64,000 nt of DNA from Candidatus Latescibacterota bacterium (GCA_965226795.1 CBDDDZ010000005.1:224001-288000); one strand, 5' to 3'. Shown: positions 4,354-15,966, numbered from the stretch's first letter. Numbers and translations: made by a program. The notes: generated by a model not told the origin, from the letters alone.

Positions 4354-7300
4354 CTACGGAAGTACGATTTTCCCCAGGTATTCCCTGAGCTTGGGCGGAA
4401 CGTGCTTTCGTATCAGGCTTTTCTTAAACGCCCAGGCCGTTTCCCCGTCGAGCTTCATCTCAAAGTGAACTGATTTTCCTTCGTAACGAGCGACGGGTTC
4501 CCCGTCGCGAAAGAGGATCCGGTTACCGGGAATCGCCGGGATACGCCTGCCCGGCGTAACGACTCCGACCAGGTTGACCGGATCGCAGGCACTGACCGAT
4601 ACGAGTTCGCCCCGTTTCTTTTCCCGCTTAAGGGACCGGATGACGGTAATTGCCTCGGAGAGCGCGTATTGCTCTCCCCATCTCTCCACGAATCGTCCTC
4701 CCCGGACCTCGCCTCGGTCCTCCATCCGCCTCAATACCCGTACCAGATCGCGCCAGGGCGGTATGCCGTTCTCTCTGGCCAGTACCCGTCTGAAGACAAC
4801 CCCGTAGCGTTTCAGCAGAATCCGCGCGCACTGTTCGATATCGGCCTCATCTTCGAATTCGGGTTCGATCACGGACCACCGGCCGGCTTGCTCCATGCCG
4901 AAGACCGGCCCCCGATTCCGACGGGACCGCACCTTGAATTTCTCAGGTATCAGGAGCGCCCGAAGACCCGCGAAGCTGTCGCACGTCAGCAATCCGGCCG
5001 CCACCAATTCGGCGATGGCGCTCTCGATTTCGCTCCTGAGCATTTTCGACCTGGCAAGGATGTCGTGGTAAAAAAGCGCGCCGCCGGCTTTCAGGCATTC
5101 GAGTACCCGTTGCGCGGAAGGCGTCAGGACCGGCGCGCAAGACTCCAAAGGGCGGAACGGCCAGGCCGCGAAGGTGGTTCGATTGACCAGGGTGATCGGC
5201 GTGGTTCGTATGGGGGTGTTTCCCGCCCTGACGCTTTGCGTCCTGAGATAACGGCCCCACATGGTTTTCCCCGATAAACAACAGGTATCCAGCCATAAAT
5301 GGTCGTAGTCCTTGATGCGCGAAGGCAGGACGTCGCTCTCCCACGCGATGGCTGGACAGGAAAATCCGTCGAGCTGATCCAGAACTTCCTTAAGCGCTTC
5401 GGGGCCCTCTTTCCGGGTGCCCTCGGTCAGACTGTGCCAGCGGAGAAGAAACCGAACGTAATCCGAAGAGGAAATGGGTCTTATTGCCCGCCGGAGCTTT
5501 TCGAGCGTGTATCTGTGGATACGCGCCAGCAGGCGGCGCTCGCACCATTCCGTTTCGGCGTCGGAAGGCAGGTCCGGTGAGAAGTGGCCCCTGATCGCGA
5601 ATCCCTCGGATTCCAGAGCGAGAAGAGCCTGGTCGATCCGCTGTCTGGAAAGGCCCATATCGCCTGCGATTCCGGACGCGGTTGTGGGCCCCAGCAGTTC
5701 TATCCGGCCCCTGACCACGTCCGTGAGTACCTGTTCCGGATCCTCCGACGAAAATGTCCGGATGGAGTCGTGAACCGCCGTTGCGCCGCGTCCGACGGTT
5801 TCGCCGTACAGGACCTCGAATTGCGGAATCCTCTCGACGGCAATCCAGAGTTTCGGTCCGTCCCTCGGGTCGACGGGTACCGCCTGACCCGATTCCACCA
5901 GCGACGCCAGGAGCGGCCGCCACGTTCCATCGCCGCTCTCCGTGATTTCCGCGTCGGTCAGGAACCCGTGCATCACCAGGACATCATACAATTCATCCGC
6001 GTCCGTAACCGCTGGCCAGGCCTCCTCCTTCACCGCATCGATCGCACCTTGCTCCAGCTTGCCCAGCTTCCTGGCGTCCGCGGGTTCGAGCCGCCTGCGT
6101 GTTCTGACGGCCTGTACCCGCCTTTCCTCAAGTGGCGCGTCATCCAGGAACGCATACGGCCGCGCATTGAGAATGCTCTCGGACATGGGGGAAGGTTCAC
6201 GGAGATCACGAGCCGACACTTCGATTTCCCCTGTGTGAATCCGCTGGAGAAGACGCTCCAGAGCGTCCACGTCCATCGCCTCGTGGAGGCAGTCGTGAAT
6301 CGTCTGGTACACCAGGGGATGGTCCGGTACCTCGCGGTCACCGGGGATGTTTTCCAGGCAGGCGAGCTGATCAGGAAAAATCAGGGCCAGCAGGTCCTCG
6401 GCGTCGGAACGCTGGATCTGGGGCGGAACGCGTTCTCCGCCCCTGCGCCTGAGCACAGCCAGCGCCGTGCAGGCGTTCCAGCGCCATCGCGCCTGGAACA
6501 TCGGCGCATCCAGCAGGGCCTGTACGAGAACCTCGCGAACCGTCCGGTCGTTCAGATAGCCGACCACTTCCTCAAGAGGGAAACTGTGCGTGGGCCCGAG
6601 GGAGAGCACCAGGCTCTCTTCGTTCGCCGCCGCCTGGAGTTCGAAGTTGAACTTTCGGCAGAATCGTTTTCGAAGGGCGAGCCCCCACGCCCGGTTCAAC
6701 CGGTTTCCGAAGACCGAATGGATGACGAGGTGCTGGTCGCCCACCTCGTCGAAGAAACGCTCCATAACGATGTGCTTCTGCGACGGTACCAGGTCCAGAG
6801 ATGCCTTTGTGGCAGCCAGGTACGTGACCACCTGGTCGGCCGCCTCCGCGCTTGCGCCGACCTCGTCCGTCAGCCAGGCGGCGGCATCCGTTTTCCATTC
6901 TCCGGATCCGTTGTCGTCCAGTTCATCGAGGTTTATTCTCGCAGCCACTTCTTCGCGGACACGGGAGACCGACGTTGAGAGTTCCGCGGATCTGCCGGGG
7001 GCTTCGCCGATCCAGAACGGCATGGTGGGGGGAAGGCCGTCGGCGTCTTCGACGCGCACCTTTCCGGTTTCCACCTTGAGGATTCGCCACGAAGCGGTGC
7101 CCAGCTGAAAAATGTCGCCAGGAAGGCTCTCGACGGCGAAATCTTCGTGCACGGAGCCGATCTGAACGCCGGATGGTTCCAGGCGCACGTCATAGTCGAA
7201 CTGGTCGGGGATGGTTCCTCCCGAGACGATCGCGTTGAGACGAGCGCCTTTTTTGGCCCTCAGTGTCCGCGTGACCGGATTGAAGTGGAGGTAGGACCGC

Positions 7301-8685
7301 CGCGTACCCCGCCTGAATGTGAATCCCTCCACCAGCATCTGGACGACGCCGTTGAATTCTTCAATGCTCAGATTTCGATAGATGGACGATTTCCGGACGA
7401 GGTCGTAGAGCGCTTCTGACGTGCTGTCCTCACTCGCGACCTCAGCCACGATCTGCTGGGCGAGCACATCCAGCGGTTTCTCGGGAAAGGGAAGGTTCTC
7501 CAGTTCGCCCCGGCGGACACTGTCCAGCAGCGCCACGGCTTCGACCAGTTCATCTTTGGTGAGCGGATACAGCTTCCCGCTCGGGGTTCCCTCGAGGGTG
7601 TGGCCGGAACGGCCAACGCGCTGAAGCAGCGTGGCGATGGCCTTGGGGGATCCGATTTGAACAACCAGATCGATGGATCCCACGTCGATGCCCAGTTCGA
7701 GAGATCCGGTGGCCACCAGGGCACTCAGGGCGCCGGCCTTGAGCCTCGTCTCCGCGTCCAGGCGTTTTTCGCGGGACATGCTCCCGTGGTGGGCGGAGAC
7801 GACCTCGGGCCCCAGCCGGTCGGACAGATGATGCGAAAGGCGTTCGGCCATGGAGCGCGTGGGCACGAATATCAGGGTGGTCTGATGTTCGGTGATGGTA
7901 CGTTCCAGGGATTGATGGATCTCTTCCCAGACTTCATTGGCCATCACTGCCGTGAGCGGCGATTCCGGCAACTCGATGTCCAGTTCCAACTCGCGCCGAT
8001 GACCGATGTTGAGGATCTTGCAGGGTTCTGCGTTTCCGGTGAGAAAATGCGCCATCCGATCAATGGGCTTCTGGGTGGCGGAGATACCGATCCGGTGGAC
8101 CGGGTTCCGGCTGAGGCGCGCCAGTCGCTCCATTGAAATGGACAGGTGGGCGCCGCGTTTGTTACCGGCAACGGCGTGGATCTCATCCACGATTAACGTG
8201 CCCGCGCTGCTCAGCATTTCCCGTCCGCCGTTGCTTGTCAGGAGAAGGTAGAGAGATTCCGGCGTGGTCACCAGGATGTGGGGGGGCGTCCGGATCATCT
8301 TTGCCCGTTCGGAGCCCGGTGTGTCTCCGGTCCGGACCATCGCCCGCACGTCCGCGTTGGGGTAACCGTTCTGTTCCAGGAGCGCCTTTATGCCCTTGAG
8401 CGGGACCTGCAGATTGCGATGGATATCGTTGCTGAGCGCCTTCAGGGGCGATACATAGACGACCTGGGTCCGGTCCTCCAGCGTGCCGTCGAGACGGCGC
8501 TCGAACAGGTCGTTCAGGACTGCCATAAATGCCGCGAGCGTTTTCCCGGATCCTGTCGGCGCGGACAGCAGGACATTTCTTCTATTCAGGATTTCAGGCC
8601 ATGCCAGAGACTGAATTTCGGACGGGTCGTTGAAATTCTTATTAAACCACTGCCGGACAACGGGATGGAAGCTTTCCAAGGGCAT
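4354..8685 (-). CDS. lhr: ATP-dependent helicase Lhr (full-length type with C-terminal winged-helix/AlkZ-like region)
   Basis: APTGSGKT, DEIH, SAT, AHHGS, LELGIDVG, QRVGRSGH; C-terminal RGGRFV..EQYA and DPVNL motifs. Confidence 0.93.
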   Translation of the reverse strand: MPLESFHPVVRQWFNKNFNDPSEIQSLAWPEILNRRNVLLSAPTGSGKTLAAFMAVLNDLFERRLDGTLEDRTQVVYVSPLKALSNDIHRNLQVPLKGIKALLEQNGYPNADVRAMVRTGDTPGSERAKMIRTPPHILVTTPESLYLLLTSNGGREMLSSAGTLIVDEIHAVAGNKRGAHLSISMERLARLSRNPVHRIGISATQKPIDRMAHFLTGNAEPCKILNIGHRRELELDIELPESPLTAVMANEVWEEIHQSLERTITEHQTTLIFVPTRSMAERLSHHLSDRLGPEVVSAHHGSMSREKRLDAETRLKAGALSALVATGSLELGIDVGSIDLVVQIGSPKAIATLLQRVGRSGHTLEGTPSGKLYPLTKDELVEAVALLDSVRRGELENLPFPEKPLDVLAQQIVAEVASEDSTSEALYDLVRKSSIYRNLSIEEFNGVVQMLVEGFTFRRGTRRSYLHFNPVTRTLRAKKGARLNAIVSGGTIPDQFDYDVRLEPSGVQIGSVHEDFAVESLPGDIFQLGTASWRILKVETGKVRVEDADGLPPTMPFWIGEAPGRSAELSTSVSRVREEVAARINLDELDDNGSGEWKTDAAAWLTDEVGASAEAADQVVTYLAATKASLDLVPSQKHIVMERFFDEVGDQHLVIHSVFGNRLNRAWGLALRKRFCRKFNFELQAAANEESLVLSLGPTHSFPLEEVVGYLNDRTVREVLVQALLDAPMFQARWRWNACTALAVLRRRGGERVPPQIQRSDAEDLLALIFPDQLACLENIPGDREVPDHPLVYQTIHDCLHEAMDVDALERLLQRIHTGEIEVSARDLREPSPMSESILNARPYAFLDDAPLEERRVQAVRTRRRLEPADARKLGKLEQGAIDAVKEEAWPAVTDADELYDVLVMHGFLTDAEITESGDGTWRPLLASLVESGQAVPVDPRDGPKLWIAVERIPQFEVLYGETVGRGATAVHDSIRTFSSEDPEQVLTDVVRGRIELLGPTTASGIAGDMGLSRQRIDQALLALESEGFAIRGHFSPDLPSDAETEWCERRLLARIHRYTLEKLRRAIRPISSSDYVRFLLRWHSLTEGTRKEGPEALKEVLDQLDGFSCPAIAWESDVLPSRIKDYDHLWLDTCCLSGKTMWGRYLRTQSVRAGNTPIRTTPITLVNRTTFAAWPFRPLESCAPVLTPSAQRVLECLKAGGALFYHDILARSKMLRSEIESAIAELVAAGLLTCDSFAGLRALLIPEKFKVRSRRNRGPVFGMEQAGRWSVIEPEFEDEADIEQCARILLKRYGVVFRRVLARENGIPPWRDLVRVLRRMEDRGEVRGGRFVERWGEQYALSEAITVIRSLKREKKRGELVSVSACDPVNLVGVVTPGRRIPAIPGNRILFRDGEPVARYEGKSVHFEMKLDGETAWAFKKSLIRKHVPPKLREYLGKIVLP

Positions 8686-8833: not shown

Positions 8834-9577
8834 CTAACGCCGTGCATGATCCTGGTGTATTGGCCGGAACTCGCCCCAGTGGGTGATCGAGTCCGTCCAC
8901 GTTTGCCGGTCCGTCGTCGGCCGGTCGCGCGAACGATCGAAATATACGGCGGCTATGCCCAGCGATCTCGGGGCCAGGACATCGTTTTGAAGATTATCCC
9001 CGATGAATAGGACGTCACCGGCGCGTTCAGCGGAAAGCCCGGCGCGACTGAGACTCTCACGATAGATTTCGGGGCCCGGTTTTCTGAACCCCAATCTGGC
9101 GCTGTCCACGACAAATTCGAAGTTTTCCAACAATCCGTAGTCGGCGAGCAGCTGTTCCGGCCACCCTGAAAGGTAGAAATTCGACACGACACCCATACGA
9201 ACGCTACCGCGCCACGACGCCAGCATCGCCTCGACCCCTGGCGTAGGCCGGACCTGCTTCGGATAAGACCTTTCGAATTCTTCCACCATTTCTTGTACGA
9301 GCCGATGGGCGGGCTTTCGATCGATCTTTCCGGAAGCCATCAGCACTTCCATCAGGCGATCCGGGAGCAACACCTCCCTCGAGTCGTTGCCGGACAATCG
9401 GTGCCTCCGCCAGCGCGAATACGCATTCACGAAGTCGCGCGGCGTGGCGAAGTAACCCTCCCGGACCGGCAGGTCGACAATCGAGCTCAATCCGGACTCA
9501 TCTCCGGTTTCATCGAAGTCGTCCAAAAGCGTATTGAAGCAATCGAAGAAGATCCAACTGGGTGTACGGTTGGTCAT
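8834..9577 (-). CDS. HAD-superfamily hydrolase
   Basis: FFDCFNTL, VVSN, RKP, FIGDNLQNDV. Confidence 0.88.
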   Translation of the reverse strand: MTNRTPSWIFFDCFNTLLDDFDETGDESGLSSIVDLPVREGYFATPRDFVNAYSRWRRHRLSGNDSREVLLPDRLMEVLMASGKIDRKPAHRLVQEMVEEFERSYPKQVRPTPGVEAMLASWRGSVRMGVVSNFYLSGWPEQLLADYGLLENFEFVVDSARLGFRKPGPEIYRESLSRAGLSAERAGDVLFIGDNLQNDVLAPRSLGIAAVYFDRSRDRPTTDRQTWTDSITHWGEFRPIHQDHARR

Positions 9578-10365
9578 GGAGTCGACGAAGACGATTGGGA
9601 GAGATTAATGTTCGTGGCCACAATTCTCGAGGTCCAATTCAGAACGGTATCCAGACCGGCGAGATGCGCGTTCGTTCGCTGCGCCATCGGCCAGGCCGTG
9701 GGCGTCTCGAAGATGAGCACGTGGTCCGCGTGGTGATGATATACGTAGGGGACGGTCCCGCCGGTGCCCCACGACGGCGAGACCTTGTAGACGCCCCTTG
9801 AGATGGGGAGGTCGTTCTCTTCCTCTTCCCCGTCGGGATCGATAGCGCCCACCTTCTCGACTTCGCGGACGATATCCGGACCGGCCCACCGTTCATCGCG
9901 GCGGCCTTCGTACATGTAGAATCCGGTGGCCTCCCAGTCTTCGTGAAAATCCACGTACAGGTCGAACCGCTTTCCTTTCAATATCTGCTTGACAATATCG
10001 CTCTCGGGAACCCCGGGCTCCGAGAAAGACCGGTTGATGTCTGTGCCCTCCCGGTTTTCCCTTCTGTTGTGGACGTATCCGTAGGGATTGACGCACGGCA
10101 GAATGAGAAACGTAAAGTAATGAAGCAGATCCACCGGGTTCCGTTCGAGAAAGGCGAGAACCGCCTCCGGCCCTGCCGGTTCGTCCCCGTGGACGCCGCC
10201 GGAGAGAAGCACGGGTTTCCGACCGCGCGGGTCACCGCCCAACCGGATGCAATAGATGGGAAATCCGTCCACGAATCCGGCCGTCTCTATCTCCATATCC
10301 GCGAGATCCAGTGCCTCCAGCCGCCGGGTCAAGCGGCCCAAATCATGGCCTTCCATTTTTAGCAT
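9574..10365 (-). CDS. M14-family metallocarboxypeptidase (AstE/AspA-like)
   Basis: GGVHGDEPAG, NPYG..NRREN..DINR, DFHED and FETP. Overlaps the HAD gene by 4 bp. Confidence 0.88.
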   Translation of the reverse strand: MLKMEGHDLGRLTRRLEALDLADMEIETAGFVDGFPIYCIRLGGDPRGRKPVLLSGGVHGDEPAGPEAVLAFLERNPVDLLHYFTFLILPCVNPYGYVHNRRENREGTDINRSFSEPGVPESDIVKQILKGKRFDLYVDFHEDWEATGFYMYEGRRDERWAGPDIVREVEKVGAIDPDGEEEENDLPISRGVYKVSPSWGTGGTVPYVYHHHADHVLIFETPTAWPMAQRTNAHLAGLDTVLNWTSRIVATNINLSQSSSSTP

Positions 10366-10374
10366 CTTTCGGTT

Positions 10375-11016
10375 TCATGGATCTGCCCGTTTTCTGAGAT
10401 GGTAAGCCTGATTAATACATGCAATTGTCATGTTTAGCTGCTTTATTCGCCAATCAATCAATGCCACCCCCGTATAAAGGCTTGTCGAGCCGTTGAGGAT
10501 GCGGGTGTGAAGGTGGGGCAGACATTCCTGTCTGCCCTTCTCAATGTCCTTACTGCCGGAATGCAGGCAGTTCGACTCCCCCTCTCCTCGCAGGAGAGGG
10601 GGTGGCGCGCCACAGAAGAATGGCTTGCGCCGTCCTTTTTCCAGTGGAGGAGATGGCGGCGAGTCGTAGCGTGCCCGGACACAGGATTCTGAGGTTTCGG
10701 TTTGCTGTATGTGAGCCGACAGGAATGTCTGCTCCACCTTCTTAAGTTTTGGTTCGAGGTATCGCTTGAGTGCGTGAACCATCCGAGATAAATCGCCTGT
10801 ACTTGCTTCCACTTTCCGTAGCAGCAACGTGTCACTGTCCCCTGTCTGCGTGAGGTGACACACAGCCAGGATGGTCAGGACGCCCTCGTCGAAGGCGCCT
10901 TTCACATTCTTGCCGCATTGACTTGCAAGATAGACCCTGTCACAATTATCTAGAACATCCACCGTAGTTTGATCCCAATTCATTGTTATAACATTACTTG
11001 CGTCACCATAATACAA
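10375..11016 (-). CDS. Hypothetical ORF; 3' half reads through REP sequences, possibly a pseudogene or spurious
   Basis: Open frame downstream of the nuclease-nitrilase gene; no recognisable motif. Confidence 0.2.
   Translation of the reverse strand: MYYGDASNVITMNWDQTTVDVLDNCDRVYLASQCGKNVKGAFDEGVLTILAVCHLTQTGDSDTLLLRKVEASTGDLSRMVHALKRYLEPKLKKVEQTFLSAHIQQTETSESCVRARYDSPPSPPLEKGRRKPFFCGAPPPLLRGEGESNCLHSGSKDIEKGRQECLPHLHTRILNGSTSLYTGVALIDWRIKQLNMTIACINQAYHLRKRADP
10512..10738. repeat. REP-like palindrome cluster
   Basis: GGTGGGGCAGACATTCCTGTCTGCCC (10512-10537), an inverted near-copy at 10713-10738, and CCCCCTCTCCT-CGC-AGGAGAGGGGG at 10578-10602. Confidence 0.75.
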
Positions 11017-11058
11017 TGACTTGGGTAGGGGAACTACCTTCTCAATGACTTATTCAGG

Positions 11059-13374
11059 TTAAGTAAGCGTTCTATAGCGATCCAATGCCTCTGCCCTCAT
11101 GTCGCGGGAAACACATGCTGTGACCATCTTGAACGCACTATCCAGACCCCACGCATATCCCAAGTCCACAATTGCTTCCCCGGATGCTTCAATCGTCCTC
11201 CGAGTGGGAACTTTATTACTATTGGAAAGCTCGACCAGTTCATGAATACGGTTACGGTCCGAAATCAGGATTGGCGCACAGCATTCAATTGTTCTGCCCA
11301 ACATGAGCGTTGCGAGGCGCGCCGAATCCGTAGGAAGGTCGTCCCACACATTCCAAATGATCGGTTTGCTGTTTGCCTTTTTCGCTCGATCTATAACGCG
11401 AAAACACTCAGCTGCATCGAGCATCCGTTCATTTTGCACAACACCCACGTACACTGATCCGCGATCGGTCTCCACATCACACCCGGGCACCTCCACGGTG
11501 CACCAACCCGTCCGACTTAAAAATGCCGGTTGTTCGTCGACTATTCCAACACGGATAGGCTGTTTTGCATTCGGGTTAGGGGGTTTCTTTGGTCTTGATG
11601 TCGAGAGGTTATCTGCTCGTGGAACCCGATTCCAATCTAATCCTCCTTCAGGCAGCCGCATGTCGAGTTCCACGACGTAGATCGAATCTGACTCTTTGCA
11701 CTCAGAAAGCGGCCGCGACTTCTTGATACCCGCTTGCCTTGCTGAGAGCTCTCTTCCATCGGGAGAAAACGCAAACGGATGAGTTGGGGCACGCCTTTGA
11801 CTACTGTCGTGCAGCGTACATAAAGAGAAGAAACGATTTTCTACCGCTCTTAGGCGAAGGATTGATGACCATTTGATGTCAACGACGTTGTCGTAACTTG
11901 GATTGATCCATATCCGGGCGCCGCGCCTTGCGAGAAATCGGGGCAGCAGGCCCAGATATTGGTCGTGGCAAATGGTCGCGCCAGCCCTCACGCCACTCAA
12001 GTCGAAGGTTGGTAGCGCATTGCTTGCTTGCCAATCCTGAAATTCAAAGGCGACGGTCTTTTCTGTGGAGTGTTTCGTGTACAAACGTGACACTGTTTCA
12101 TCAGGATCTATACGTAAAAGGATCTGGCGGGTGCGTCCGATCGAATCGTCACTATGGTCGGTCGCGCCGACAAGCAATGGCGCATCCAGATCCGCAGCGA
12201 GTTTCTTCAGTAAGTTGATACGTTTGGAATCGGTCGCGTTAATGTATTCTTCCGGAAAGAGAACAAAGTCTACGCTTTCGCCTGCAAAGGATGCGTGGGT
12301 GGGTATGACGGGCTTCTGGGCATTATCTCCAAGAGGTACGATTCCGAGTAGCGCACTATGGTTTACCCGAGGAAACACGAGTGCCGCTCGCAGTACAGAA
12401 GTCGTTCGAGCAGCGGAGTTATGCCTTTTAGCCATCGTTTGGCTTGTTCTTAAGGGCTTCTGAGTTGAACTGTGAATGCCGATAAAAGCGGAGAATCGCT
12501 GCCGGTCGTTGTTGCTGTCGGGGTCGAGCGAACACCAGACCATATCGCGGGCGTACAGTCTAACTGTCGGCTGAAGTCCCTCTATCGACGGCACGAGATC
12601 CCGCAATGCGTCATACCATGCCCGTTGTTCGTCACGAAATGGGGGATCGTTGTCCTTTGCATCGTGGCGCTCACAGTGTGAGATCCATTGCTTTCCGGAA
12701 AAACCCAAGGCCAGGTCGTCCGGGTACGCGTGAAGGGTCAGTTTTCGCGGCGTCGTGAAGTGTTGTCGCTCATCGAACTCCAGGATAAATCCGGGGTCGG
12801 GTAACCAAAAGTCGCACGCGGCCAGCGTTTCGGTTCTCACGAAATCCTTAAGGGCAAAGCCACGGTATTTCTCTAGAATTGCTGCGAGTTCCCGCAGTGT
12901 CGAGTAGATCTGCGTTCCGGCGTATGAGGAAAGATGAGTTGGCCAGTCAAACCTGTGGTTCGCCAGGCATTTTCCGTAGATTCGTACGAGAAGCTCGCGG
13001 ACCCGCGCCTTACAGTCAGGACAATGCTCAGAGTGACGTTCTTGCTGTATCACGAACTTCCTCTTTCTGGTTCGATTAGCACGCCGAGTGAGAGTCTTGG
13101 CGCGATAACCACCTCCGCAATTGCAATCAGCTATTTCGAAGCCACGTTTACTCAGAAAGCCGTTGGACTCACCGCCGCCAGAGAATTCGTACGAAGGGAG
13201 AAACCGACCCGTTGCTATCTGATGAGCCAATGCAACGGTGTACTTCGGCGGGTAATGACAGCCATCATTAACCAGGCAGTAATACCGCCCCTTCCTACGC
13301 GGTGGAACACCCTCACGCCTGATACGACAAATCGCTTCGACCAAGTGCTCGCTTGTAATGCATGACGGTATCAT
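11059..13374 (-). CDS. Multidomain protein: ScoMcrA/McrB-like N-domain, PD-(D/E)XK-like nuclease, carbon-nitrogen hydrolase (nitrilase)
   Basis: YPPKY..FSGG.E.N.FL..RGF; CDF..LEFDERQHF and RDEQRAWYD; FPEEY, YTKH, ICHD, RAVEN. Confidence 0.78.
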   Translation of the reverse strand: MIPSCITSEHLVEAICRIRREGVPPRRKGRYYCLVNDGCHYPPKYTVALAHQIATGRFLPSYEFSGGGESNGFLSKRGFEIADCNCGGGYRAKTLTRRANRTRKRKFVIQQERHSEHCPDCKARVRELLVRIYGKCLANHRFDWPTHLSSYAGTQIYSTLRELAAILEKYRGFALKDFVRTETLAACDFWLPDPGFILEFDERQHFTTPRKLTLHAYPDDLALGFSGKQWISHCERHDAKDNDPPFRDEQRAWYDALRDLVPSIEGLQPTVRLYARDMVWCSLDPDSNNDRQRFSAFIGIHSSTQKPLRTSQTMAKRHNSAARTTSVLRAALVFPRVNHSALLGIVPLGDNAQKPVIPTHASFAGESVDFVLFPEEYINATDSKRINLLKKLAADLDAPLLVGATDHSDDSIGRTRQILLRIDPDETVSRLYTKHSTEKTVAFEFQDWQASNALPTFDLSGVRAGATICHDQYLGLLPRFLARRGARIWINPSYDNVVDIKWSSILRLRAVENRFFSLCTLHDSSQRRAPTHPFAFSPDGRELSARQAGIKKSRPLSECKESDSIYVVELDMRLPEGGLDWNRVPRADNLSTSRPKKPPNPNAKQPIRVGIVDEQPAFLSRTGWCTVEVPGCDVETDRGSVYVGVVQNERMLDAAECFRVIDRAKKANSKPIIWNVWDDLPTDSARLATLMLGRTIECCAPILISDRNRIHELVELSNSNKVPTRRTIEASGEAIVDLGYAWGLDSAFKMVTACVSRDMRAEALDRYRTLT

Positions 13375-13538
13375 GGTTTTTCTTTGTGCGTTAATTTCCG
13401 AAGTGGGCTTTGAGTCTGCTTTGTGCTGAAAGTTGAGTCGAAGGTTTCCAACTTACATCCCTGCTGATTGGTCAGCCGTCTGCGGCCTCGGTGAACGGAG
13501 ACTTGTCATACGCTTCGTCGTGGACCTCCACTTACGAG

Positions 13539-14357
13539 CTATGATTCTTGAGTACTGTACCGAATCTCGTGGTAGTCGTAATCGCTCGTAATCGGCACGG
13601 GCTTCCCCTCCAGAAACGCCCATCTCCCCACGTCGCATGCCGATGCCCGGACGAATCCGTTAATGTACGATCGCCGGGGCAGGTCCGTCGCATTCGGCGA
13701 TGAGCCGTGAACCGTATACGACGTAAACATCAACACGTCTCCCGGCATGGCCTCGCAGGGCACGGCCGAGGAGACAGCCACCTGCGCTTCGACACTCCCT
13801 TTCGCGTACCGTTTCGCCTTCAAATCGCCCAGTTTATGGCTCTCTGGCACGACGTGCAGGCATCCGCTCGCGACGGTCGCCTCGTCCACCACGATAATGG
13901 TCTGCACATAATTGTTCACCTGATCGCGAAACGCGGGCGTGGGACGGACGTCCTGGTGCCACGGAAATTCGATTTTCCCGCCCGGCATCTTGAAGTTGAT
14001 CTGATTGATAAACTGCTTCAGTGTCGTTCCGATCAACGGGTCCAAAAGGGCGGGAAATTTGGTACTATTGCGGATCTCCTCGAACGCCGGATGAATCAGT
14101 GCCGGCCACTGGACCTTTCGAAGATAGCGTACGGCTTTTGGTCCCGCCATCGGTCCGGGGGTCTGCAGGTGAACGTGCACGTCGTTCCGCCTGCCCTTGA
14201 GAATTTCATCCGGAAGATCCGTCCGCGATGCCAGTTCCAGGATGTAGTCGTAGCCTTCGCGCAGGCGCGCAATCTCATCGCCGCCGAATACGCCGCGCGC
14301 CACGTGGTATCCCTGTTCCCGGAAGGCTTCGACGTCTTTCTTGCTGAGAGTTTTCAT
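13539..14357 (-). CDS. Phytanoyl-CoA dioxygenase (PhyH) family Fe(II)/2-oxoglutarate oxygenase
   Basis: FREQGY, PWHQD, GCLHVVPESH, HGSSPN..RR. Confidence 0.9.
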   Translation of the reverse strand: MKTLSKKDVEAFREQGYHVARGVFGGDEIARLREGYDYILELASRTDLPDEILKGRRNDVHVHLQTPGPMAGPKAVRYLRKVQWPALIHPAFEEIRNSTKFPALLDPLIGTTLKQFINQINFKMPGGKIEFPWHQDVRPTPAFRDQVNNYVQTIIVVDEATVASGCLHVVPESHKLGDLKAKRYAKGSVEAQVAVSSAVPCEAMPGDVLMFTSYTVHGSSPNATDLPRRSYINGFVRASACDVGRWAFLEGKPVPITSDYDYHEIRYSTQES

Positions 14358-14557
14358 AGGGCATCTTTCCAGAGTTTACCGGCAATCCCGTATCCTTAAA
14401 GAGCCTCGTGTTCCGCCGTTTTTCGATGGCGTGAGAGTTCGTGCGACCTCCTGGCCGCGATCGAGCCGTGTACTCCGGTATGCTATCCGCAACCACCGTG
14501 CGCCCTGTGCATTCGCGTTTGAGGGTCCGGTACGTCGTGATTCAATTCACCAGCGTT

Positions 14558-15367
14558 CTATTCCAGGTCCGGAAGATCCCTCTGGTCCAGGTTAAGCCTG
14601 ATGGAGCGCGGTTGACGTGGAACCCTGGAGACAAATCCCAGCTGTTCCAATCTCTTGAGCATGCTATTTACGGTTGGAGGAGTTACGGCGAAATAACGCT
14701 GGATATCGGCCTGGGCCGGCGGAATGCCGTTCACCTTGGTGTAGTAATGGATAAAGGCCAGATATTGACCTTGCCTGTAAGTAAAGGATACGGTCTCCAC
14801 GTAATCGCCGATTTCGTCACTATCGAACTGGGCCAGGGTCTGATTGACAAGATCAATAGGGAAGGTTTCGGGATCGAAATTGCCCCCAAGCCAGTCGATT
14901 GTCGAGGAATGCTCCGGGTGATCGCTGTCCCCCAGGGCCTCCAGGAACTCCTTATATCCCGAGATACCGCCTGCATTCTCTGGCGGGCACGAACGCTCAC
15001 CCGCCAGACACGTAGCGTGGAATACCTCCGATTCCGGCTCTTTGATTGCTTCCACTTTCACCAGGTGTTTCCAACTGTCTCCAAAATCGTATTCGTAGAG
15101 AAATTCGACGCCGGTGAATGGTGCAACACGCTCCAGCTGGTATCCCTCTTCATCCAGCGTCTCCTCGCCCCAATCGTCGAGATCCGGATTGCATATGCCG
15201 AAGCGGGAGTCTGCTATGCGAAACTCGTGGAGATGGGAGTTCGTCCATCCCATCACGATTTGAATTATCAAATGGAGGTCGGCCAGGGAGCACTCGCCGT
15301 CAACATCGATGCGTCTCCATATCGGTGGCTCGATGTTCAGCAGGGTGATCTTGAGTTGGTAGATCAT
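14558..15367 (-). CDS. pRiA4b ORF-3 family protein fused to a C-terminal LexA/MarR-like winged HTH
   Basis: IYQLKITL..PPIWRR, HLHEF, YEYDFGDSW, CPPEN.GG; then FTYRQGQYLAFI..PPAQADI..TPPTV..RSIRL. ATG at 15367 has an RBS. Confidence 0.85.
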   Translation of the reverse strand: MIYQLKITLLNIEPPIWRRIDVDGECSLADLHLIIQIVMGWTNSHLHEFRIADSRFGICNPDLDDWGEETLDEEGYQLERVAPFTGVEFLYEYDFGDSWKHLVKVEAIKEPESEVFHATCLAGERSCPPENAGGISGYKEFLEALGDSDHPEHSSTIDWLGGNFDPETFPIDLVNQTLAQFDSDEIGDYVETVSFTYRQGQYLAFIHYYTKVNGIPPAQADIQRYFAVTPPTVNSMLKRLEQLGFVSRVPRQPRSIRLNLDQRDLPDLE

Positions 15368-15468
15368 GGCTTTCCTTCCGCTTTTTTCAGCCACTGGATG
15401 CGCCCGCCCTTTGTTGTCGGATAAGGAAGACAGCGTCACCGAATGTGGGCGTATCCGAACGCAGGTTT

Positions 15469-15966
15469 CTATTTCCGGCCTTCCAGGTTCTGCCGGATTC
15501 TGGCTGTCATCGCGTGTATCTGTTCGGACGTGAGATGCGTGGGCGTAACCGTGTCGAAGCGGACGCCCTCTGCTCGCGCGATGTGCGGAGGGAATTTGCC
15601 CTGCGCTGTCGTCGTTTTCCACTGCGGCACCACGTGCAGGTGGAAATGCGGGACTTCCTGGAGGCTGGCGACGCCGTTATTCTGGTAGATCAGCAAACCC
15701 TCCGCATTCACCGCGGTTGACAGCGCCCTGCCCACCCGGCGGGCGACATCTAGCACCTGGATCATTTCAGATTCGGTGAGATCGAACACGGTTGGTGCGT
15801 GCCGCTTTGGCGCAATCAGGCATTGTCCCTTCAGGAACTGCCTGCTGTTCACCCGTGCAATGGTGCCATCCGTTTCTTCCACAAAATCATCGGGTTTACC
15901 GTTGCGCACGACTTCGCAGAAGAAACACGGATCCTGTTCCGGAAGTTCGAAACCGTCAAAGCTCAC
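15469..15966 (-). CDS. HIT-family protein
   Basis: CFFC, LIAPKRH, QNNG..QEVPHFHLHVVP. GTG start chosen from the GAAAGG RBS. Confidence 0.85.
   Translation of the reverse strand: MSFDGFELPEQDPCFFCEVVRNGKPDDFVEETDGTIARVNSRQFLKGQCLIAPKRHAPTVFDLTESEMIQVLDVARRVGRALSTAVNAEGLLIYQNNGVASLQEVPHFHLHVVPQWKTTTAQGKFPPHIARAEGVRFDTVTPTHLTSEQIHAMTARIRQNLEGRK

Follow-up and report, generated by a model that had tools for sequence, protein, structure and literature searches.

What does a nitrilase do on the same polypeptide as a nuclease? The question is raised by one gene in a 64,000-nucleotide stretch of DNA from a Candidatus Latescibacterota bacterium (the window, meaning the whole stretch that was analysed). 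A first-pass annotation had proposed that an N-terminal domain of the ScoMcrA type, a nuclease and a nitrilase are joined there in a 771-aa ORF on a low-GC islet, and that the product acts in defence. Our analysis points to a real, large and uncharacterised family that is a candidate for such a role.

Four domains on one polypeptide

The ORF is present and open over all 771 codons (Table 1), and the motifs quoted for it are all there, at most about 20 bp from where they had been placed: YPPKY (13254) and FSGG (13185) in the head, CDF (12816), EFDERQHF (12780) and RDEQRAWYD (12636) in the nuclease, and FPEE (12258), YTKH (12081) and ICHD (11973) in the nitrilase. Missing from the earlier description was a fourth, C-terminal domain of about 170 aa. 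At E<=0.001 the protein has 660 homologues. The 120 best of them are 56–100% identical to it, and as 117 of these 120 have the complete four-part architecture, an assembly artefact does not explain the fusion. A contig from public run X1, which may be the source sample itself, covers 12157–14500, including the point where nuclease and nitrilase join, and shows a single difference. The AlphaFold model has a mean pLDDT of 83.6, with disordered linkers at residues 90–113 and 301–324. Pairwise comparison with nine alleles gave dN/dS values of 0.11–0.32 in each domain where they were computable, and all domains are under purifying selection. Contig pieces of the gene were found in two RNA runs (X17 and X18), in which DNA may be present, and a promoter/terminator scan of the gene performed no better than chance. 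The nuclease motifs occur in an estimated 880 or so metagenome stretches.

Table 1. Position of the gene, its domains and its flanking features in the window.
Feature	Residues	Position	Strand	Basis
Four-domain gene (head, nuclease, nitrilase, C-terminal domain)	1-771	11059..13374	-	ORF and homologue architecture
ScoMcrA-type head domain	1-88	13111..13374	-	VIA against 5zmm; PF26345
Vsr/AbaSI-type PD-(D/E)XK nuclease-fold domain (predicted)	113-300	12475..13038	-	VIA, AbaSI motif match, DUF7255, conservation
Nitrilase-superfamily C-N hydrolase domain, E375-K434-C469 (+E444), nucleophile motif C-H-D	325-578	11641..12402	-	PF00795, Foldseek, VIA
Conserved C-terminal domain	600-771	11062..11577	-	pLDDT, hhalign, dN/dS
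MITE-like dispersed repeat at the stop codon of the gene, outside the system		10420..11058	.	Dispersed copies with a common sharp end
phyH-family dioxygenase, upstream core flank of the insertion site		13539..14357	-	Pfam, genus comparison
M14-family peptidase/deacylase, downstream core flank		9574..10365	-	Pfam, genus comparison

Assignment of the head to the ScoMcrA type was borne out by the VIA match to ScoMcrA itself (5zmm; Z 8.1, rmsd 2.1, 64 aligned residues, 25% identity; Z 7.8 in a second comparison), and precomputed PF26345 (ScoMcrA_N) annotations are found on nearly all homologues. Foldseek with the head-nuclease model returned no match at E<=0.001, the best being ScoMcrA at E 0.02. 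The available text of PMC6224610 describes the ScoMcrA head as small, flexibly attached and of unknown function. Elsewhere the head is fused to a GIY-YIG domain (L152) or, on a Thermococcus plasmid, to another PD-(D/E)XK-like domain with restriction genes alongside. Because it recurs with four nuclease types we infer that the head binds DNA, and the family could supply a first function for it. The GIY-YIG fusion (L152:6607-7596) has a Wadjet JetA gene a few kb away. The plasmid gene (pTBMP1, L210:2291-10231) encodes a head, DUF7662 and a nuclease-like domain, and lies in a cluster with HSDR_N, a beta-CASP nuclease, a class II glutamine amidotransferase, a cyclotransferase, an ADP-ribosylglycohydrolase and DUF2357; an amidoligase link guessed from this cluster was dropped in view of that domain composition.

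The middle domain, earlier taken for a Vsr/DUF559-like nuclease, indeed has Vsr-type nucleases as its top VIA matches, namely Vsr (1cw0; Z 6.0–6.5, rmsd about 4, 115 residues) and I-Bth0305I (Z 5.7–6.3); RAP, Bax1 and NGO0050 are matched as well. The upper VIA rows are mostly restriction-fold nucleases, at a middling Z of about 6. A profile built from 58 nuclease sequences matched eight PDB sequences, of which AbaSI (4par) is the sole DNA nuclease of this fold; that sequence match is weak (E 0.16–0.5), and AbaSI is not among the 50 VIA matches listed for the domain. D188 and E199-F-D201-E202-x-Q204-H205-F206 stand in gapless register with AbaSI D61 and E72-V-D74-E75-x-H77-H78-F79, and K122 is, by position only, the probable counterpart of AbaSI K23. 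In the accessible part of PMC4081097, D61, E75, H78 and K23 are given as essential for AbaSI. All 118 homologues that have the nuclease domain keep K122, D188, E199, E202 and H205; H114, C118, C121 and C187 are likewise invariant in them and, as an HxxxCxxC..C arrangement, likely form a Zn site. Copper-chaperone matches to the CxxC stretch were put down to chance likeness. Each of the 58 nuclease domains tested weakly matches DUF7255 (PF23913), with a best E of 2.8e-6 and scores mostly below the curated cut-off, and DUF7255 is found in 14–26% of the members of Atlas neighbours at 0.96–0.97; our search found no literature on its function. Judged from the fold and the residue match, the domain is predicted to cleave DNA.

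The claim of a nitrilase with all three catalytic residues proved correct, with E375, K434 and C469 present in 120/120 of the best homologues and E444 in 113/120. The domain matches Pfam CN_hydrolase (PF00795) at E 1.3e-11, is found by Foldseek at E 1e-13, and has the alpha-beta-beta-alpha sandwich fold, superposing on Nit2 with a VIA Z of 22.6 (rmsd 4.0, 236 aligned residues). Its nearest solved relatives are nitrilases of the Nit3/Nit2 type, and all five NCBIfam matches of the protein lie far below cut-off. We know of no nitrilase that acts on DNA. The C-terminal domain is mostly modelled at pLDDT 75–95 and has a dN/dS of 0.15–0.32; hhalign relates it to the C-half of the nitrilase at E 0.0012, yet 3 of 40 block shuffles scored as high, and it is tentatively regarded as possibly a degenerate copy of that half.

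An accessory gene and its neighbours

Part of the proposed low-GC islet holds up, in that the ORF has a GC of 0.525, where the genome averages 0.583, and a GC3 of 0.54, where most neighbours have 0.69–0.76. However, a GC this low is also found in 134 (5.7%) of 2,335 genome tiles of the same size, and the remaining dip is the MITE-like repeat. The 'islet' is a single accessory gene between the phyH and M14 peptidase genes, not an island. The repeat measures about 640 bp and abuts the stop codon with a sharp end common to 13 genome copies; the end is preceded by a short target, T/A-rich or CTAG-like and in many cases a stop codon, and internal palindromes of the repeat have 20–38 genome matches. 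Adjoining phyH is a gene conserved in the genus that fuses a pRiA4b ORF-3-like domain to a LexA-type DNA-binding domain (window 14558–15622), and three genes downstream of the nuclease-nitrilase gene lies a full-length Lhr-type helicase gene (window 4354–8685) that is core in the genus.

At the phyH-M14 site the 15 genomes of the host genus carry different alleles. The gene is intact in five (G000, G003, G006, G013 and G014), broken by an IS in two (G005 and G008) and nuclease-less in three, of which G002 and G012 are in frame and retain the head, and G004 lacks the head as well. The site is empty in the remaining five (G001, G007, G009, G010 and G011), where the flanks are 24–39 bp apart. These empty-site genomes fall in at least four places on the flanking-gene tree; therefore loss or gain was repeated. 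Alleles are also mosaic: those of G000 and G013 are 96–97% identical over codons 301–400 as against 65–87% elsewhere, and the 5' dS between G000 and G008 is 0.016 as against 0.14–0.49 in the flanks. In the sister nuclease-less alleles of G002 and G004, the nitrilase has a dN/dS of 0.20 at a dS of 0.51. Shared features suggest that their common ancestor was already nuclease-less; if so, the nitrilase has been selected on its own, which suggests a role for it beyond gating the nuclease. Within the phylum the nuclease was present in 10 of the 168 genomes searched, from 2 of 49 genera, and outside it alignment matches were found in 14/104 genomes of one family, several of them partial, and in 2/121 genomes of one order.

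The gene's own flanks in the window are metabolic genes; no conserved metabolic operon recurs across loci, contrary to what would have spoken against defence. Neighbours were compared as 280 de-duplicated proteins from 69 loci, near-identical neighbours and ORFs of <110 aa having been dropped, with 136 proteins encoded in 14 randomly chosen 12-kb stretches, all from the host genome; components of RM, Druantia, CBASS, TIR and Abi systems were counted by hand as defence. Pfam alone identified 17/280 defence neighbours against 3/136 in the control (p=0.09). With PADLOC added, which was run on 91 of the 280 neighbours and 25 of the 136 controls, picked mostly for having no Pfam match, the counts were 28/280 against 4/136 (p=0.010), to be read with the clustering of such genes and a control from one genome in mind. 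Counted by locus, Druantia, RM, CBASS or TIR genes lie near 13/69 loci, a defence gene near 9/21 loci of at least 8 kb, and one in 3/14 control regions. Among the 19 loci of the intact-triad class with readable flanks, three without usable flanks being excluded, a strict defence gene lies near 5 and mobile-element genes near 9. This enrichment lends modest support to defence. PADLOC has no model for the 771-aa protein at E<=1, nor for six other members at 1e-8. The proposed defence role has indirect support from the gain/loss pattern, from an RM slot in a second genus and from the modest neighbour enrichment.

That slot lies in genus g6, where the gene or a piece of it precedes a Dam-like D12 methylase gene directly in 3/21 genomes. 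Of 17 other genomes in which the slot was examined, 16 have no restriction gene there and one (G026) has a split type II REase; in G047 and G043 a weakly Mrr-like gene stands upstream. The slot is an RM locus with an orphan, non-cognate methylase. No neighbour family recurs across independent loci and hence there is no cognate methylase, nor any other conserved partner. Upstream of the methylase, the g6 slot (L167–L206) is a small variable defence hotspot. In the host genome, about 15–40 kb from the gene and outside the window, there is a defence cluster (G000:C5:207993-219992 and 195382-207381; L165 and L166) with Eco57I-type/type IIG RM genes, an HNH protein and a TPR-GreAB-C-PIN system, and a further defence-like island (G000:C2:532085-544084; L157) comprises TIR, a type ISP specificity domain, LA2681-like HEPN and two DUF5131 genes.

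Known systems and the wider family

Four known systems come close, and each differs in a defining point. AbaSI and PvuRts1I (4PAR; available sections of PMC4081097), of a family of 5hmC-dependent type IV REases, likewise have an N-terminal Vsr-like nuclease with the D-x10-E-x-D-E-x-x-H-F register, a second domain behind it and no cognate methylase, but their second domain is an SRA-like 5hmC reader, whereas here we find a nitrilase and an extra C-terminal domain, besides the head and the putative Zn site. ScoMcrA, a type IV enzyme for phosphorothioate and 5mC (5ZMM; PMC6224610, as far as available), shares the flexibly tethered head, but the 771-aa protein has no SBD, SRA or HNH domain, and 5zmm matches residues 2–92 only, the rest of the chain falling to other folds. 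END nucleases, in the accessible text of PMC12191111, are also single-gene nucleases with a borrowed enzyme fold and a swappable C-terminal domain; their nuclease is PLD or NucS and their reader a catalytically dead EndoIII, in contrast to the Vsr-type nuclease and intact-triad nitrilase here. Pfam and fold searches found no inactive EndoIII/Ogg1 sensor in the 771-aa protein, the slot being held by the nitrilase. From the same source, a borrowed enzyme fold can serve as a reader, and readers are swapped. DRT1 and UG5 (DRT11) are defence polypeptides that likewise join a catalytically complete nitrilase to an enzyme of nucleic acids, and their nitrilase Cys is needed for abortive infection (PMC13275509 and PMC13436386, available parts); the present protein has a nuclease and no helical repeats, neither it nor its flanks contain a reverse transcriptase, and PADLOC gives no match. 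As a defining feature of each is missing, the protein belongs to none of the AbaSI, ScoMcrA, END and DRT groups. What it shares with type IV enzymes is a solo nuclease with no conserved neighbour to serve as methylase; the co-occurring cognate methyltransferase of a type II RM system was not found.

As far as the accessible part of PMC13275509 goes, the nitrilase domains known from anti-phage defence all accompany reverse transcriptases, and what they act on is still a question. C-N hydrolases have been proposed as toxins in ParA-linked systems (10.64898/2026.10.19.760177, available portion) and appear as a NACHT-fused domain (10.1101/2022.07.19.500537, likewise in part). The head-nuclease-nitrilase architecture is not named in the accessible sections of these two or of 10.1101/2024.10.26.620412 and PMC12904381. 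We found no published description of it; candidate tables in preprint supplements or subscription papers may list the family.

The nuclease swaps among several C-terminal modules: intact nitrilase, class B, class C and unrelated domains. Of 147 extensions behind the nuclease, 25 are intact nitrilases, 105 belong to classes B and C, which form one linked cluster, and the remaining 17 are of other kinds. Class B resembles the nitrilase (E 1.6e-4, with 0/25 shuffles as high); it retains Lys and Cys, has Gly or Ala in place of the catalytic Glu and has no Pfam match. Class C has the motif order of the nitrilase, whereas its direct match was equalled by 10/25 shuffles; it matches class B at E 0.007, and the merged profile of both classes matches the nitrilase at E 4e-4. 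Going by motif order, class C may tentatively be counted as a nitrilase fold. Profile searches with classes B and C gave no meaningful PDB match. Nuclease-only, head-nitrilase and stand-alone forms all occur, the last accounting for 74 of 120 class C matches, some of which may be fragments. P0173, P0193, P0226, P0232 and their relatives combine the same nuclease with unrelated, helical-looking C-terminal domains of 300–500 aa that have no Pfam or PADLOC match.

Possible functions of the nitrilase

A defence role overall is fairly probable, and from its context the protein is likely to be antiviral. Because it combines a type IV-lineage nuclease, a type IV head, no methylase and a swappable C-terminal module, it most resembles modification-dependent restriction enzymes. 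We tentatively favour, with somewhat less than even confidence, a stand-alone type IV-like enzyme: the nitrilase, in the position that the modified-base reader has in AbaSI, would either bind or hydrolyse a base modification with an amide or nitrile group and thereby allow the predicted AbaSI-type nuclease to cut invading DNA, and head-nitrilase forms without a nuclease would strip or damage the modification unaided. N6-carbamoylmethyl-adenine and 7-amido- or 7-cyano-7-deazaguanine are candidate modifications. Any action of the nitrilase on a DNA base is speculative, and so is the identity of the base. The triad being intact in 120/120 homologues, unlike the dead readers of END nucleases, speaks against this type IV-like enzyme, as do the continued selection on the nitrilase in nuclease-less G002 and G004, the large share of class C that stands alone, the weak AbaSI sequence match with its middling fold scores, the weak neighbour enrichment and the lack of a PADLOC model. 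In a bolder version, which we consider unlikely, a nitrilase-fold amidase delivered to DNA by the head would strip or convert amide- or nitrile-bearing viral bases and pass the site to the nuclease; in bacteria and archaea, classes A, B and C would then read or erase different modifications, as the first nitrilases to act on DNA.

Those same nuclease-less alleles fit a different scheme, that of abortive infection with two effectors, in which the head or the nuclease would sense phage DNA, the nitrilase would be a toxic amidase that destroys an essential metabolite with an amide group (the action proposed for DRT1), and the nuclease would be a dispensable second effector. We regard this main rival as possible, if on the unlikely side. 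The need for the nitrilase Cys in DRT1 and UG5 and the toxins proposed in ParA-linked systems (both from the available parts of the sources cited above) favour it, as does the intact catalytic tetrad, and IS breakage and clean loss, together affecting 7/15 genomes, suggest that the gene carries a cost. On the other hand, no PADLOC DRT nitrilase model matches the protein, whose closest solved relatives are of the Nit3/Nit2 type; much of the family, namely class B, is without the canonical catalytic Glu, and no antitoxin or sensor partner is conserved.

DNA repair or damage control, with a Vsr-like nick beside an amide-type lesion and removal of the lesion by the amidase, would suit the Vsr fold, the position of the window gene among HIT, HAD and Lhr helicase genes and that of many relatives among archaeal housekeeping genes. 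It is nevertheless improbable for a gene that is missing from 158/168 phylum genomes searched and from its site in 5/15 congeners, that has no conserved repair partner and that has mobile elements near about half of its intact-class loci. Filled, empty and mosaic alleles at one site, and a nuclease fold common to the homing endonuclease I-Bth0305I, could instead point to a selfish or addiction-type gene without antiviral benefit, spread as homing nucleases are or maintained by post-segregational toxicity. This is quite improbable, however: insertion sites vary between lineages, there is no intron or intein setting, the nuclease is the part most often deleted, a loss that a homing element could not afford, and the nitrilase and C-terminal domain are under selection. 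As for a restriction subunit of a type II RM system paired with the adjacent Dam-like methyltransferase, in G032 and G043 nuclease-only forms do extend over the start of the methylase, but the G043 form is a deletion product that ends in the neighbouring small gene. The methylase was ruled out as cognate partner, as all 21 g6 genomes carry it and 18 of them lack the gene, and a methylase query found no match in G000, G011 and G014; this pairing is largely refuted and hardly credible.

The family is large and unannotated; its interest lies in the joining of a nitrilase with intact catalytic residues to a type IV-like nuclease, and its natural nuclease-less and altered-nitrilase variants are built-in controls. 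If, as the type IV-like reading would have it, amide-type DNA modifications are read or erased, the family would provide a new class of reader and a reagent with which to map bases of this kind. Should it instead be an effector that destroys a metabolite, it would allow the DRT1 substrate question to be approached more simply, through a single gene. No full-length match to the 771-aa protein was found in plasmid and phage collections, and none of the viral contigs has a class A alignment. One viral contig does carry a nuclease-less gene of head and class C (L207:5650-6837), on the opposite strand to its two flanking genes. These flanking genes presumably encode terminase and portal. The same contig also has a tandem Dam-like methylase.
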